Source of the DNA: Desulfatiglandales bacterium
Lineage (GTDB): Bacteria; Desulfobacterota; DSM-4660; Desulfatiglandales; Desulfatiglandaceae
DNA: 64,000 bases
Assembly: GCA_963666345.1 (NCBI GenBank)
Contig: OY762721.1
Span: 4,098,109-4,162,108, forward strand
Direction of reading: 5' to 3'
The position numbers and the translations under genes were made by a program. Shown in pieces: positions 3,919-8,365 of the stretch (its first letter is position 1; every line of letters starts with the position of its first letter). The notes under the pieces are model-generated. The model was not told the origin of the DNA. It did not search any database and saw only the letters and a program-made list of their open reading frames with translations.

Positions 3919-4398
3919 ATGTCCATTTTTGAAAAGCCCGTTCTTTCCCTGGTTTACAGATTCAACTGGATTTCATCGTTTTTGATCGTTGTAATGATGC
4001 TTCTGACCTGCGCCGATGTTGTCCTGCGCTTTTTTCGTCATCCGATCCCGGGTACATATGAGATCGTCGGATTACTTGGGGCACTGGTGATATCCTTTTC
4101 CCTTGCCTATACATCGGAAAAAAAAGGACATATCGCAGTGGAATTTCTAGTAAAAAGGCTGCCTGCACGACTTCAGAACCTTATAAATGCCTTTAACCTA
4201 GCCATTGCAACGGTGCTTTTTTCACTTATTACAAAGGAAAGTTTTCTCTATGCAGGAGAACTCAAAAGTGCCGGTGAGGTCTCTCTCACTCTTCATATGC
4301 CTATCTATCCCTATATATATGGTGTTGCGCTGGGATGCGGTCTTTTTTCTCTTCTTCTTGTCAAAAATACCATAACCGGCATGCGGAGGCTTTTTTAA
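3919..4398 (+). CDS. dctQ: TRAP transporter small permease
   Basis: 4 hydrophobic helices, DVVLR..F..PI.G..EI, GHIAVE motif; SD AAGGAG. Confidence 0.9.
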   Translation: MSIFEKPVLSLVYRFNWISSFLIVVMMLLTCADVVLRFFRHPIPGTYEIVGLLGALVISFSLAYTSEKKGHIAVEFLVKRLPARLQNLINAFNLAIATVLFSLITKESFLYAGELKSAGEVSLTLHMPIYPYIYGVALGCGLFSLLLVKNTITGMRRLF

Positions 4399-4399
4399 A

Positions 4400-5701
4400 G
4401 TGAATCCAATAACGGCAGGTTTTATCGGTATAGCCGCCCTGTTCCTGTTACTTTTCATGAGAACGCCGGTAGGATTTCTCATGGCCATTGTGGGTTTCCT
4501 GGGTTTCGGTTTTCTTGTATCCTTTGACGCGGCGAAGAGCCTTCTGGCCAAAGATTTTATTATGGTTTTCGGCTCCTACAGCCTTTCCGTAATACCACTC
4601 TTTGTCCTGATGGGACAGGTTGCCTTTCACTCAGGTATCAGCACGAGGCTTTTCAAGGCGGCCTACAAATGCATAGGTAACATTCCCGGTGGCCTGGCCA
4701 TAGCAACAATAGGCGCGTGCGCTGGATTTTCCGCCATATGTGGTTCAACAAATGCAACCGCGGCAACAATGGCGGCCGCGACAATTCCTGAAATGAAAAG
4801 ATATAACTACAAACCGGGTCTTGCCACCGGAGTCGTGGCGGCCGGAGGGAGCCTGGGAATACTGATACCACCCAGTGTCATATTTATCGTCTATGGAATA
4901 ATGACGGAGCAGTCGATCGGAAAACTCTTTATCGCAGGTCTTTTGCCGGGGATAATCCTTACTCTTCTGTTTATACTTTCCATATCCGTGTGGACATGGT
5001 TATGCCCCGATATAGCCCCCAGAGGCCCGAAAACAACCTTGAGGGAAAAACTCCATTCTCTGAAGGGAATATCTGAGACTTTTATCGTTTTTTCCCTCGT
5101 GATGGGAGGGCTTTTCATCGGCATGTTCACGCCGACCGAAGCAGGTGCGGTAGGCGCCTTAGGCATGATCGTGCTTGCCTTTGTGCGGCGTAAACTCTCC
5201 TGGGATTCGTTTAGAAAGTCCCTGTTTGAGACTACGCGTATTTCATGCATGATCCTGGTAATAGTGGCCGGGGCAACCATCTTCGGCCATTTTTTGGCGG
5301 TCACCAGAATCCCGTATGAGGTCGCTTACTGGATTTCCGATTCTCAGCTGCCCCCCTTTGCTATTGTGCTGCTTATTATTCTGGTGTATCTGATAGGCGG
5401 TTGTTTCATCGATGCCCTTGCATTAATAATGCTGACAGTGCCCATATTCTATCCCGCAATAGTCGAGATGGGTTACGACCCGCTATGGTTCGGTGTGATT
5501 ATCGTACTTGTTACACAGATAGGTGTTATTACCCCTCCGGTGGGAATAAATGTGTATGTTGTAGGGTCGGTGGCAAGGGATGTCCCCCTTAATGTCATCT
5601 TCAGGGGTGTGATCCCCCTGTTGATTGCACTGGTGATAGGGACGCTTATATTGATCCCTTTTCCGCAGATAACGACCTGTTTACCCAGCCTTATGGGTTA
5701 G
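4400..5701 (+). CDS. dctM: TRAP transporter large permease
   Basis: IPLFVLMG, GGSLGILIPPS, FTPTEAG, ITPPVG signatures; many TM helices. Confidence 0.95.
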   Translation: MNPITAGFIGIAALFLLLFMRTPVGFLMAIVGFLGFGFLVSFDAAKSLLAKDFIMVFGSYSLSVIPLFVLMGQVAFHSGISTRLFKAAYKCIGNIPGGLAIATIGACAGFSAICGSTNATAATMAAATIPEMKRYNYKPGLATGVVAAGGSLGILIPPSVIFIVYGIMTEQSIGKLFIAGLLPGIILTLLFILSISVWTWLCPDIAPRGPKTTLREKLHSLKGISETFIVFSLVMGGLFIGMFTPTEAGAVGALGMIVLAFVRRKLSWDSFRKSLFETTRISCMILVIVAGATIFGHFLAVTRIPYEVAYWISDSQLPPFAIVLLIILVYLIGGCFIDALALIMLTVPIFYPAIVEMGYDPLWFGVIIVLVTQIGVITPPVGINVYVVGSVARDVPLNVIFRGVIPLLIALVIGTLILIPFPQITTCLPSLMG

Positions 5702-5902
5702 GCATGCAAAAAGGTCTCAAGGATTTCCGGGTTCAAATGGAGGATGTTAAAGAATTCCGGCGCCGTCACATAGAACCTTCTTTTGCTTGCGTATACTCAT
5801 GTTTTATGCGAATAAAAAATGACGGCTTCTTTCCCGAGATGTTGCCTCAAAGCGTTATAAAAAGATTCTTTTATCGAAAAAAGCAGGTAAGAGGAGGTAT
5901 GT

Positions 5903-6427
5903 ATGGAAATGGATATCTTCGAAAAGATGGATACATCGGAGCTTGCAAAGTATATCGAATTTTTGCTTTGGCACTACAGGGTAGTCGATGCCTTCTGGTT
6001 TATATTTATTGAAGATAAATACGGCAAACCTGTTGCGGAAGAAATCAATGAAAAGGTATGGGGAAGAGTCTCAGGTATGGCGATAAAGGATTTGATTTCA
6101 AAATTCAATATAGAGGAAAAGGGACTTAAAGGCTTTACAAAGACCCTGAGACTTTTTCCATGGTGCATACTTGTTGGGTATGAAATAGAGGAATCGGATA
6201 AAGAGGTGTTTGTATCGGTAAGATCCTGTCCTACTCAGATGGCCAGGATAAAAAGAGGACTGGGTGAATATGTGTGCAAGGAAATGCACAGGAGGGAATT
6301 CGTCGGAATAGCGAATGCCGTGGATGAAAATATCGATGTGGAATGCATGTTTGCACCACCTGATCCCCATCCTGATGATATGTTCTGTAAGTGGCGTTTT
6401 ACAGTTAAGGATGGAAAAAACTGTTAG
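5903..6427 (+). CDS. Conserved hypothetical protein, DUF6125-like
   Basis: DAFWF...CPTQ.AR..RG...CK..H..EF......[10 protein letters not shown]...CKWRF pattern; SD GGAGG. Confidence 0.7.
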
Positions 6428-6627
6428 GGCGGCTTAGGAAGTGTCATGAAAACAGAGAATTATTAATGATCGCTTAAGGAGGCTTCAGTGCATATTTGTT
6501 TGCCGGCAGCAATTTTGACCTTGACATCCGCTCTGGTAATGGCATAAAGAATAACATCATGTTTTCAGCACCTAAAAATATTGTTAATAATTCAAAGACG
6601 GAAAAAGGCTTGTCGGGCCGCCCTTTG

Positions 6628-6708
6628 ATGGTAATGTCATCGGGAGAGTCTGATCCTCAAGTGTTCGTCGACTGTAATTGGTGGTGGAACAGCTGGTGGG
6701 CATCCTGA
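6628..6708 (+). CDS. Tryptophan attenuator leader peptide 1 (...VFVDCNWWWNSWWAS*)
   Basis: Five TGG codons within 7 codons just before TGA, followed by a terminator, upstream of trpB2. Start ambiguous: ATG 6559, 6628, 6634 or GTG 6661. Confidence 0.75.
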   Translation: MVMSSGESDPQVFVDCNWWWNSWWAS

Positions 6709-6748
6709 GTGCTCTTTGACCTGTGAGTCGAAGAATTCTTAAAAAAAT

Positions 6749-6785
6749 AAAGCCCGCCCTTTTTAAAAGGGCGGGCTTTTTATTT
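6749..6785 (+). terminator. Intrinsic terminator of Trp attenuator 1
   Basis: AAAGCCCGCCCTTTT-T-AAAAGGGCGGGCTTT inverted repeat running into TTTTTATTT. Confidence 0.9.
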
Positions 6786-6800
6786 GAAAGGAAAGGATCA

Positions 6801-6857
6801 ATGATTACTAAGAGAGAGAAAAAATGGTGGTGGCTTATGCACAAGCGGCGCGGGTGA
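6801..6857 (+). CDS. Tryptophan attenuator leader peptide 2 ([18 protein letters not shown])
   Basis: SD-like AAGGAAAGGA, ATG 6801, TGG TGG TGG at 6825-6833, TGA 6855-6857; too short for the ORF track. Confidence 0.85.
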
Positions 6858-6895
6858 ACTTCAGGCAGATGCCTTTAATGTTTACTCCAAGGCAT

Positions 6896-6934
6896 AAGCC
6901 CGCCGCTCATAAGAGCGGCGGGCTTTTTTTATTT
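6896..6934 (+). terminator. Intrinsic terminator of Trp attenuator 2
   Basis: AAGCCCGCCGCTC-ATAA-GAGCGGCGGGCTT 13-bp stem running into TTTTTTTATTT. Confidence 0.9.
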
Positions 6935-6982
6935 AATTATCTGAAAATAACAGAACAATACCGACAAAAAAAGGAGGCAACA

Positions 6983-8365
6983 ATGAGACATGAAGTGATT
7001 AATCTGGCAAAGGATGAAATGCCTAGACAATGGTACAATATCCTGGCGGACATAAAAGTAAATACGGCCCTTGGCCCGGACGGCAAGCCACTGAAGCCGG
7101 AAGACCTGGCACCTGTCTTTCCGATGAACCTCATAGAACAAGAAGTAAGCACGGAGCGGTGGATCGATATCCCTGATGAGGTAATGGATGTCCTGAACAT
7201 ATGGAGACCTTCACCTCTGATCAGGGCGCATTCTCTTGAAAGAGCCCTGGGTACCCCGGCAAAGATATATTTCAAAAATGAATCTGTGAGCCCTCCAGGA
7301 AGCCATAAGGCCAATACCGCCGTGCCTCAGGCATATTACAACAAGGAATTCGGGATAAAGAAGCTTACTACCGAGACCGGAGCGGGGCAGTGGGGAAGCG
7401 CGCTGTCCTTCGCATGCTCCCAGTTCGGTCTTGAATGCAAGGTTTTCATGGTCAGAGTAAGCTTTGAGCAGAAGCCATACAGGCGCACCATGATGCAGGC
7501 ATGGGGAGGCAACTGCGTGGCAAGCCCCAGCAGAGAAACCCAGGCAGGAAGAGATGCACTTGAAAAAGATCCTGATACTCCCGGAAGTCTGGGAATGGCA
7601 ATAAGTGAGGCGATCGAGGAGGCGGTAGGAGACGTAAGCGGTAAGACGCGTTATTCACTCGGTAGCGTCCTAAATCACGTAATGCTTCACCAGAGTATAA
7701 TCGGACTTGAGACAAAGAAGCAATTTGAAAAAATAGGCGAATATCCTGATATAATAATAGGTTGCGCAGGTGGCGGAAGCAATTTCGCGGGTCTGGCGTT
7801 TCCCTTTGCCTATGATAAAATGAGCGGCCGGGAAATAGAGATCATGCCCGTGGAACCCAATGCGTGTCCAACCATGACCAGGGGGCCCTATGTCTACGAT
7901 TTCTGCGATTCCGCCGAATATACGCCTTTGCTTCCGATGTACAGCCTTGGGCACGACTTTGTCCCTGCACCGATTCATGCGGGAGGTTTGCGTTACCACG
8001 GTATGTCACCCACGGTAAGTCAGCTCGTGACAGAGGATATAGTCTCCCCCAGGTCTGTTTCTCAAATCGACGCGTACAAGGCGGGGGTCTTATTTGCCAG
8101 GACAGAGGGTATTATTCCCGCACCTGAGACTACAAATGCCCTGGCATTGGTTGTTGAAGAGGCACAAAAGGCAAAAGAGGAGGGAAGGGAAAAGGTTATC
8201 GTAGCCAGCTTCAGCGGCCACGGCCTGTTGGATCTTGGAAGCTATGAGAGATTTTTCGCCGGTGAAATAATTGACTGTGAAATGCCAGAAGAAGTTATTA
8301 CAAACGTAAATGAGTTGCTCAAAGACTATCCGAAACCGGATTTTGTGAGCAGCCTCAGACCATGA
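6983..8365 (+). CDS. trpB2: Tryptophan synthase beta chain type 2 (TrpB-like PLP enzyme)
   Basis: [12 protein letters not shown] (PLP lysine), [47 protein letters not shown] before ATG 6983. Confidence 0.93.

Follow-up and report, generated by a model that had tools for sequence, protein, structure and literature searches.

Our analyses have identified two short tryptophan-rich leader open reading frames (ORFs), each with a terminator of its own, that lie in series 5' of a lone trpB2 gene in the genome of a Desulfatiglandales bacterium (GenBank assembly GCA_963666345.1, contig OY762721.1). The stretch analysed, referred to below as the window, comprises 64,000 nucleotides (nt), viz. positions 4,098,109 to 4,162,108 of the forward strand; all coordinates are those of the window unless a contig is named, and the leaders were established by reading the sequence from 6200 to 7300 together with the list of ORFs. 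We interpret this arrangement as two ribosome-mediated tryptophan attenuators acting in series upstream of a stand-alone trpB2, an interpretation to which we give a probability of about 0.6, and we consider it far more probable that one attenuator, at the least, is in working order.

According to this interpretation, the ORF that carries the Trp run in each unit would be translated while RNA polymerase heads for an intrinsic terminator located ~62 nt downstream. With an ample supply of charged tRNA-Trp, the ribosome would reach the stop codon and cover the antiterminator segment, the terminator hairpin would form and transcription would end, whereas under scarcity of charged tRNA-Trp the ribosome would stall at the first Trp codons, leaving the segment available for pairing to the 5' terminator arm, and the polymerase would read on. 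The trpB2 gene would be reached only by transcripts that pass both checkpoints, and hence read-through would be roughly the product of two Trp-dependent probabilities, with a low leak and a steeper response as the expected outcome. The enzyme, which would make tryptophan from scavenged indole, would thereby be produced only when tryptophan is short. A control with two thresholds, set by the 5 and 3 Trp codons of the two leaders, had also been suggested in the first-pass annotation of this DNA, and it is conceivable by inference from these numbers.

Organization of the Region Upstream of trpB2

The elements upstream of trpB2, as well as the gene itself, are the following.

6476..6547, + strand: Shine-Dalgarno (SD) sequence AAGGAGG (6476-6482) and a 19-codon hydrophobic ORF, MHICLPAAILTLTSALVMA*, from GTG 6488 to TAA 6545-6547, in a frame that differs from that of leader ORF 1
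From ~6481, + strand: open frame of leader ORF 1, with the in-frame start candidates TTG 6496, ATG 6559, ATG 6628 and ATG 6634
6559..6708, + strand: leader ORF 1, ending in CNWWWNSWWAS* (...VDCNWWWNSWWAS*), with 5 TGG within the final 10 sense codons
6679-6687 and 6694-6699, + strand: TGG codons of leader ORF 1, followed by its TGA stop at 6706-6708
6695..6701, + strand: antiterminator segment of unit 1, GGUGGGC, in the region of the fifth Trp codon; its partner is GCCCGCC 6752-6758 in the 5' arm of T1
6749..6785, + strand: terminator T1, a perfect stem of 14 base pairs (bp; 8 GC) at 6749-6779 with a 3-nt loop, then TTATTT; hairpin -23.8 kcal/mol
6788..6857, + strand: leader 2, with the SD-like sequence AAGGAAAGGA, ATG 6801, 18 codons, three TGG at 6825-6833 and TGA 6855-6857
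6832-6840 with 6892-6900, + strand: alternative pairing of unit 2, predicted to form only when leader 2 is untranslated
6844..6850, + strand: antiterminator segment of unit 2, AGCGGCG; its partner is CGCCGCU 6901-6907 in the 5' arm of T2
6896..6934, + strand: terminator T2, a 13-bp stem (10 GC) at 6896-6925 with a 4-nt loop, then U7; hairpin -27.8 kcal/mol
6983..8365, + strand: trpB2, 460 codons, with the SD sequence AAAGGAGG before ATG 6983; monocistronic

Reading of the sequence places the end of leader 1, its five TGG codons and its stop at 6708 ahead of T1, exactly as the first-pass annotation had described them, and together with a consensus scan it likewise confirms leader 2 at 6801-6857, T2 next to it, and then the SD sequence and ATG of trpB2. 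The pairings that the same annotation proposed required some correction: that between GGUGGGC and GCCCGCC in unit 1 exists, but its first segment lies at 6695-6701 rather than at 6696-6702, and the two proposed for unit 2 (6832-6840 with 6892-6900 and 6844-6850 with 6901-6907) are both possible, but they cross each other and are therefore alternatives and not parts of one helix. In the consensus scan, T1 and T2 are the two strongest terminator-like sites between 5800 and 8800. They have 9-nt arms, AAGCCCGCC/GGCGGGCTT, in common, and T1 reads as a terminator on both strands, having an A-run upstream besides its U-run.

Unit 1 would lose its relevance if a promoter were located in the interval from T1 to leader 2, a point that the first-pass annotation had itself raised. 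The consensus scan detected no sigma-70-like promoter between T1 and leader 2, and since no promoter-like site separates the units, both of them are probably carried on one transcript. A candidate internal promoter noticed by eye, TTGACC at 6716-6721 with TAAAAA 18 nt further on, lacks the conserved last T and its start would fall inside T1; it is also altered at positions 6721 and 6743 in a ~95%-identical contig, and it was judged unlikely. A GTG at 6723 stands in frame with leader 2, the resulting 44-codon frame running straight through T1, and it has no SD sequence (-2.2 kcal/mol); we take it as a coincidence. Upstream of the leaders and on the same strand, positions 3919-6427 are occupied by TRAP transporter genes (DctQ, DctM) and a gene for a DUF6125 protein.

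Genomic Uniqueness and Likeness of the Two Units

The source genome is available as one contig of 4,162,108 bases and is 96.7% complete. On both strands of this 4.16-Mb genome the sequence TGGTGGTGG occurs 70 times, and a hairpin with the arms AAGCCCGCC...GGCGGGCTT is found at T1 and T2 and nowhere else. Among 2270 TGGTGG sites genome-wide, only 5 places fall in a short frame, at 20 codons or fewer from where it stops, and have a strong terminator no more than 140 nt away; the two upstream of trpB2 are the clean ones. The two-unit arrangement is very unlikely to be due to chance.

The units are also alike in their internal spacing. The Trp runs and the hairpins recur with the same period of 146 nt, the distance from the Trp run to the terminator arm is 62 nt in unit 1 and 63 nt in unit 2, and that from the stop codon to the arm is 40 and 38 nt, respectively. 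The remainder of the two units, outside the Trp run and the arms, is 26% identical at the 146-nt offset, which is the random level. As only the parts that an attenuator needs are alike, we read this pattern, whether it arose by duplication or by convergence, as suggestive of selection on both units. The region 6655-6940 as a whole folds at -103.7 kcal/mol, with z = -4.97 in comparison to 200 shuffled sequences.

Predicted Antiterminator Switch

The first-pass annotation had proposed that the region be folded with and without ribosome-masked segments. We have modelled co-transcriptional folding under constraints, the transcript being cut just 5' of the 3' arm of each terminator and the stretch covered by the ribosome being masked; in both units the antiterminator is obtained with the ribosome stalled at the first Trp codons and is absent once the ribosome has reached the stop codon. 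In unit 1, GGUGGGC 6695-6701 is predicted to pair with GCCCGCC 6752-6758 if Trp codon 1 or 2 holds up the ribosome; a stall at Trp codon 3 leaves no more than 4 bp, and the pairing is lost when the ribosome stands at Trp codon 5 or at the stop. In unit 2, AGCGGCG 6844-6850 is predicted to pair with CGCCGCU 6901-6907 whichever of Trp codons 1 to 3 the ribosome has stalled at, and a ribosome at the stop abolishes this pairing. Both units, so modelled, fit the classical logic of attenuation. The antiterminator duplex of unit 1 has an energy of -15.4 kcal/mol, which is equalled by 1.45% of 2000 dinucleotide shuffles.

The trpB2 Gene and the Tryptophan Pathway of the Host

The protein encoded at 6983..8365 matches the models NF009057 (695 bits; cut-off 366) and TIGR01415 (620 bits; cut-off 518.85) over its full length, and its score against the model for canonical TrpB, TIGR00263, is 147.7 bits and under the cut-off of 392.45. 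Judged by these family scores it is TrpB2, a TrpB-like pyridoxal phosphate-dependent enzyme. The next genes downstream are on the opposite strand, which, along with the scores against NF009057 and TIGR01415, bears out the earlier description of trpB2 as a stand-alone gene.

The genome that contains the window has no match to Trp_syntA (trpA), IGPS (trpC), Glycos_transf_3 (trpD) or Chorismate_bind (trpE), models that found matches in all 14 control genomes; for PRAI there is a marginal match only (22.5 bits), and no canonical TrpB scores above its cut-off. Its gene content suggests an organism auxotrophic for tryptophan, in which the final step is all that is left of the de novo pathway. Indole salvage is a role of TrpB2 enzymes, and since trpA, trpC, trpD and trpE are all missing from the genome, the putatively attenuated trpB2 most likely encodes an indole-salvage enzyme. 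Of 41 genomes of the order that were searched for trpA, 25 have a match and 16 have none, and the latter include some that are 95-99% complete and have trpB2.

A second TrpB2 is encoded elsewhere in the same genome, on the minus strand (G000:C1:1710169-1711530, locus L031); it is 62% identical and scores 738 bits against NF009057, and the neighbours of its gene encode a gamma-glutamyltranspeptidase on one side and, on the other, a protein with a POR_N (2-oxoacid:ferredoxin oxidoreductase) domain. The intergenic region of ~390 nt upstream of this second gene contains no Trp-run ORF and no Rfam match. The sole candidate for tryptophanase, a beta-eliminating lyase of 471 residues (G000:C1:3093769-3094899, minus strand, locus L201), is by its NCBIfam scores a tyrosine phenol-lyase (TIGR02618, 755 bits, over the cut-off) and not a tryptophanase.

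Leaders of Related trpB2 Loci

The first-pass annotation had also suggested counting units of Trp-rich upstream ORF plus terminator at the trpB2 genes of relatives. We have carried out this count on trpB2 loci from 40 relatives and the genome itself (30 loci), from a set with one genome per species (80), from metagenome contigs (80) and from 14 further copies; the set may include redundant copies, and the leaders were called by a script and by eye. In these ~200 related loci, searched upstream for Trp-run frames and terminators, no second case of tandem leaders was found, and one metagenome locus (L116) is identical to the window. A single Trp leader is present upstream of trpB2 in 8 other loci, where it consists of WWW, ~55-60 nt, a GC hairpin and a U-run.

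L054 (76% identity): leader end ...AWWWCIRWVG*
L181 (74% identity): leader end ...NWWWCHGAEVHRW*
L083: leader MKPRKKNNWWWQS*
L111 (Desulfatibacillum alkenivorans record): leader MKYTGFWWWRSLLSR*
L028 (genome G002): leader ...NRNWWWRSS...
L214: leader MKYDIENSNWWWSPWKAG*
L073 (Bacteroidota-like metagenome-assembled genome, MAG): single Trp leader
L042 (Bacteroidota-like MAG): single Trp leader

In an alignment of the two units of the window with L054 and L181, the Trp run, the spacing and a hairpin of the GCCCGC type are common to all. Two of the loci, L028 and L111, have one Trp leader followed by two terminators, each of a hairpin plus U-run, with a shared arm sequence, which makes pairing possible between the 3' arm of the first terminator and the 5' arm of its successor. 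From these comparisons, the doubled terminator is seen as a recurring theme, and two complete leader units as a feature of the window only. In a wider search of 209 genomes of the order, the pattern TGGTGGTGG-N(122-152)-TGGTGGTGG was encountered at 33 places in 26 genomes, and among the 30 places read, two short frames with two strong terminators were present only at the window's own place, other spacings and units with WW only being outside the pattern.

A different association was observed in a genome of the same family (L196, G019:C742), where a Trp_repressor-family gene (PF01371, 59.8 bits) at 1430-1717 lies directly 5' of a 76%-identical trpB2. A tblastn search with its protein revealed no relative in the genome of the window or in the other 198 collected loci. 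On the strength of the single leaders in relatives and of this Trp_repressor-family gene, the trpB2 lineage appears to have been placed repeatedly under tryptophan control, by different means. Many trpB2 orthologues of the Desulfobacterales (L037, L049, L090, L099 and others) follow ribBA, ribH and nusB after a short gap and are leaderless.

A near relative of the window is represented by an 805-nt contig from another study, which covers 6673-7297 at ~95% identity with 30 differences and was the sole informative variant among the DNA contigs compared with 6300-7400. Of the differences listed, 11 fall within the covered part of the leader region (6673-6982); the TGG codons and the terminator stems, where ~3 changes would be expected by chance, have none.

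6721, 6723, 6725, 6730: in or beside a small hairpin of the spacer
6743; 6748; 6764 (loop of T1); 6799 (before ATG 6801); 6861
6818 (GAG>GAA) and 6851 (CGC>CGT): in leader ORF 2, both synonymous

This comparison gives weak support to the proposed attenuators.

Points against Two Attenuators in Series and Alternative Explanations

A number of observations weigh against the proposal that two attenuators operate in series, and several of them concern the translation of leader 1. SD energies were calculated for the region upstream of each start codon in relation to the anti-SD tail of the 16S rRNA of this genome (3' end ...GGATCACCTCCTTTCT), and for random positions the mean is -2.9 and the 5th percentile -7.9 kcal/mol. 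While the pairing is strong for trpB2 (-11.8 kcal/mol), and leader 2 has an SD-like pairing of -6.5 kcal/mol before an ATG start, leader 1 has no SD sequence at ATG 6559, 6628 or 6634 (-1.5 to -2.5 kcal/mol). The sole strong SD sequence in its neighbourhood, AAGGAGG at 6476-6482, stands 13 nt before TTG 6496 (-10.7 kcal/mol) and is better suited to the 19-codon ORF in another frame, whose GTG 6488 it precedes by 5 nt (-11.1 kcal/mol). This ORF stops 11 nt upstream of ATG 6559, and it may be a ribosome entry point that leads on to leader 1. Leader 1 may begin as a 70-codon frame at TTG 6496, by re-initiation at ATG 6559, or by initiation independent of an SD sequence, and its initiation signal is the weakest point of unit 1. 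The 70-codon frame was also considered as a real protein and rejected, having no Pfam family and no homologue among the collected trpB2 loci.

Other such observations concern the RNA. The antiterminator complementarity of unit 2 falls within the range of dinucleotide shuffles (fractions 0.27, 0.29, 0.15 and 0.23), and G-rich Trp and Arg codons readily pair with a C-rich arm. The minimum-energy fold of the full sequence retains T1 and T2 under every ribosome mask, which the models lead one to expect given the stability of the two hairpins (-23.8 and -27.8 kcal/mol), and the switch thus rests on kinetic, co-transcriptional reasoning. When no ribosome is present, both antiterminators form in the constrained folds, so that the predicted default is read-through and termination would require translation to the stop codon; the default state of Escherichia coli trpL is a different one. 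To these points may be added that T1 could merely end transcripts arriving from the upstream DUF6125 and TRAP genes, that none of the listed sequencing runs with this stretch is RNA, and that in the loci and genomes searched the tandem form was found in no other organism apart from near-identical strains. The tandem-attenuator reading advanced in the first-pass annotation is accordingly upheld in its anatomy, its stand-alone TrpB2 and its fold logic, and weakened by the shuffle-range complementarity of unit 2 and by a leader 1 without a near SD sequence.

Among the alternatives, the one that survives best, although we consider it unlikely, is that only the proximal unit (leader 2 with T2) works, unit 1 being a decayed duplicate, or T1 serving mainly to end the upstream transcription unit and the Trp-rich frame being no sensor. 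Leader 2 is indeed the one with an ATG that has a suitably spaced SD-like site before it, which leader 1 lacks at its near ATGs, but the Trp signal of leader 1 is the stronger one (5 TGG in the last 10 sense codons, with the stop 40 nt before the terminator) and its antiterminator is the one that beats the shuffles. A role of T1 for the upstream genes would agree with the consensus scan, in which the DUF6125 gene, ending at 6427, is followed by no terminator-like site before T1. All 8 related leader-bearing loci have one leader, as this explanation would predict; the leaders of the closest relatives (L054 and L181), however, resemble leader 1 and not leader 2, and decay would not leave the Trp run and the arms both in 146-nt register.

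It is less probable still that there is one sensor with two linked terminators, in which case ribosomes would read leader 1 only, the second Trp run would act as RNA that pairs with the 5' arm of T2, and the decision would be relayed by the shared arms, the partner of the 5' arm of T2 being either the 3' arm of T1, when that is free, or the GGUGGGC segment in unit 1. The single leader with twin shared-arm terminators of L028 and L111 matches such a scheme, as do the 9-nt arms shared by T1 and T2. Because these arms are identical, the unit-1 segment fits the T2 arm as well (-20.4 kcal/mol, equalled by 3.2% of shuffles), and if the ribosome is at the stop of leader 2, or if leader 1 is empty, the minimum-energy fold joins the region 6694-6702 to the 5' arm of T2, ~200 nt apart. 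Cross-talk of this kind is possible according to the models, but the long-range pairing is thermodynamic and without kinetic support. In the constrained folds, untranslated UGGUGGUGGCUUAUGC pairs with the T2 arm, the Trp codons of unit 2 themselves taking part (-35.7 kcal/mol for the partial transcript). What this scheme leaves unaccounted for is leader 2 itself, a clean ORF of 18 codons with an ATG, an SD-like site, 3 consecutive TGG and a distance to the terminator like that of unit 1, in which both substitutions seen in the near relative, two events only, are synonymous.

We regard it as quite improbable that the actual products are short RNAs or peptides, ended at T1 or T2 and acting in trans, with the control of trpB2 being secondary. 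There is a reported precedent in rnTrpL/peTrpL of Sinorhizobium (PMC6614838, PMC7298713), and two stable terminated RNAs of ~150-230 nt would arise from the window; nothing here points to a trans target, and such products would be compatible with two attenuators in series. The weakest alternative, in which chance alone has brought together a pair of ordinary terminators and a pair of TGG runs, agrees with the majority of Desulfobacterales trpB2 orthologues being leaderless and behind ribBA-ribH-nusB, but it is very unlikely on the counts given above, the units being unique in the genome, in phase, and upstream of a tryptophan-forming enzyme.

Two tryptophan attenuators in series hence remain our preferred explanation. 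A fuller account, which taken as a whole is tentative and somewhat less probable than its negation, would be that a unit of 146 nt was duplicated and that selection has preserved nothing of it except the Trp run and the terminator arms, resulting in two ribosomal sensors of the same signal in series and a squared, switch-like response. Cross-talk would in addition be possible through the identical arms, T2 being held open by the antiterminator of unit 1 or by the 3' arm of T1 once freed, and the whole would gate the salvage of indole by TrpB2 in a bacterium that resembles sulfate reducers and would have lost its entire de novo tryptophan pathway.

Comparison with Known Systems

In comparison to Rfam, the region of the window scores below the gathering score of every family. 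It is not a member of RF00513 (Trp_leader; 22.1 bits at 6688-6784, gathering score 41) or of RF04312 (trpB ncRNA motif; 22.6 bits at 6855-6935, gathering score 59), and the best match, a minus-strand one to RF02901 (35.9 bits, gathering score 97), was rejected as the two hairpins read backwards. Seven of the related leader-bearing loci likewise have no Rfam match at gathering score. The trpB ncRNA motif is described as a riboswitch candidate of Firmicutes and Fusobacteria (PMC11109978).

The mechanism proposed here is that of the textbook, and the arrangement is one that we have not found in print. Our survey of the literature on tandem leader-peptide attenuators, in which subscription journals are thinly covered and absence is thus unproven, yielded the mgtCBR leader only and no tandem Trp case; Rodionov et al. 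2004 (PMC545781) do not describe a delta-proteobacterial trp attenuator, their text containing neither 'tryptophan' nor 'trpB'. While its value is limited by its coming from one organism and from sequence only, a natural pair of ribosome-read Trp checkpoints would offer a simple test of whether serial attenuators sharpen the response and cut the leak. It would also be, if true, an example of a regulatory RNA that grows through duplication of a unit, and it would support the view of stand-alone TrpB2 as a tryptophan-regulated enzyme of indole salvage in organisms without de novo tryptophan synthesis.

The closest parallel to each single unit is the trpL leader of enterobacteria, in which Trp codons stand side by side towards the end of a short ORF, an intrinsic terminator follows ~40-60 nt further on, an antiterminator competes with it for pairing, and a gene of tryptophan biosynthesis lies downstream. 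Unlike trpL, the window has two complete units, with 5 and 3 Trp codons, it has a lone trpB2 with the rest of the pathway missing, and read-through, not termination, is the predicted outcome for its RNA when untranslated. Two successive checks of tRNA-Trp charging are also made in the at (rtpA) operon of Bacillus subtilis, where a Trp T-box is followed by the Trp-codon leader peptide rtpLP. In that operon, however, the T-box controls transcription and the leader peptide controls translation, whereas the two units of the window are of like kind.

To our knowledge, serial attenuation in response to the same signal is known only for sensors made of RNA alone, viz. tandem T-boxes and tandem riboswitches. 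Tandem THI elements, with a terminator each, have been predicted in Desulfovibrio (PMC545781), and tandem T-boxes are reported to be specific to certain lineages, the way they act being given as unknown (PMC7583486). The window resembles these systems in its two putative serial sensors of the same signal with terminators of their own. It differs from them in that the sensor would be a translating ribosome, whereas in T-boxes and riboswitches the RNA alone senses the tRNA or the metabolite.

The mgtCBR leader of Salmonella contains two short ORFs, mgtM and mgtP, each with its own attenuator, that act independently and additively; they sense ATP and proline-charged tRNA, respectively, and its authors call the case singular (PMC3641672). 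As in mgtCBR, the window has two short ORFs, probably in one 5' leader, each with its own predicted attenuator structure. The signals of mgtM and mgtP are different ones, whereas both ORFs of the window carry Trp runs, and each is followed by a canonical intrinsic terminator. In comparison to the single-leader trpB2 loci, including L028 and L111 with their twin terminators, the window is distinguished by its two full units of leader plus terminator.

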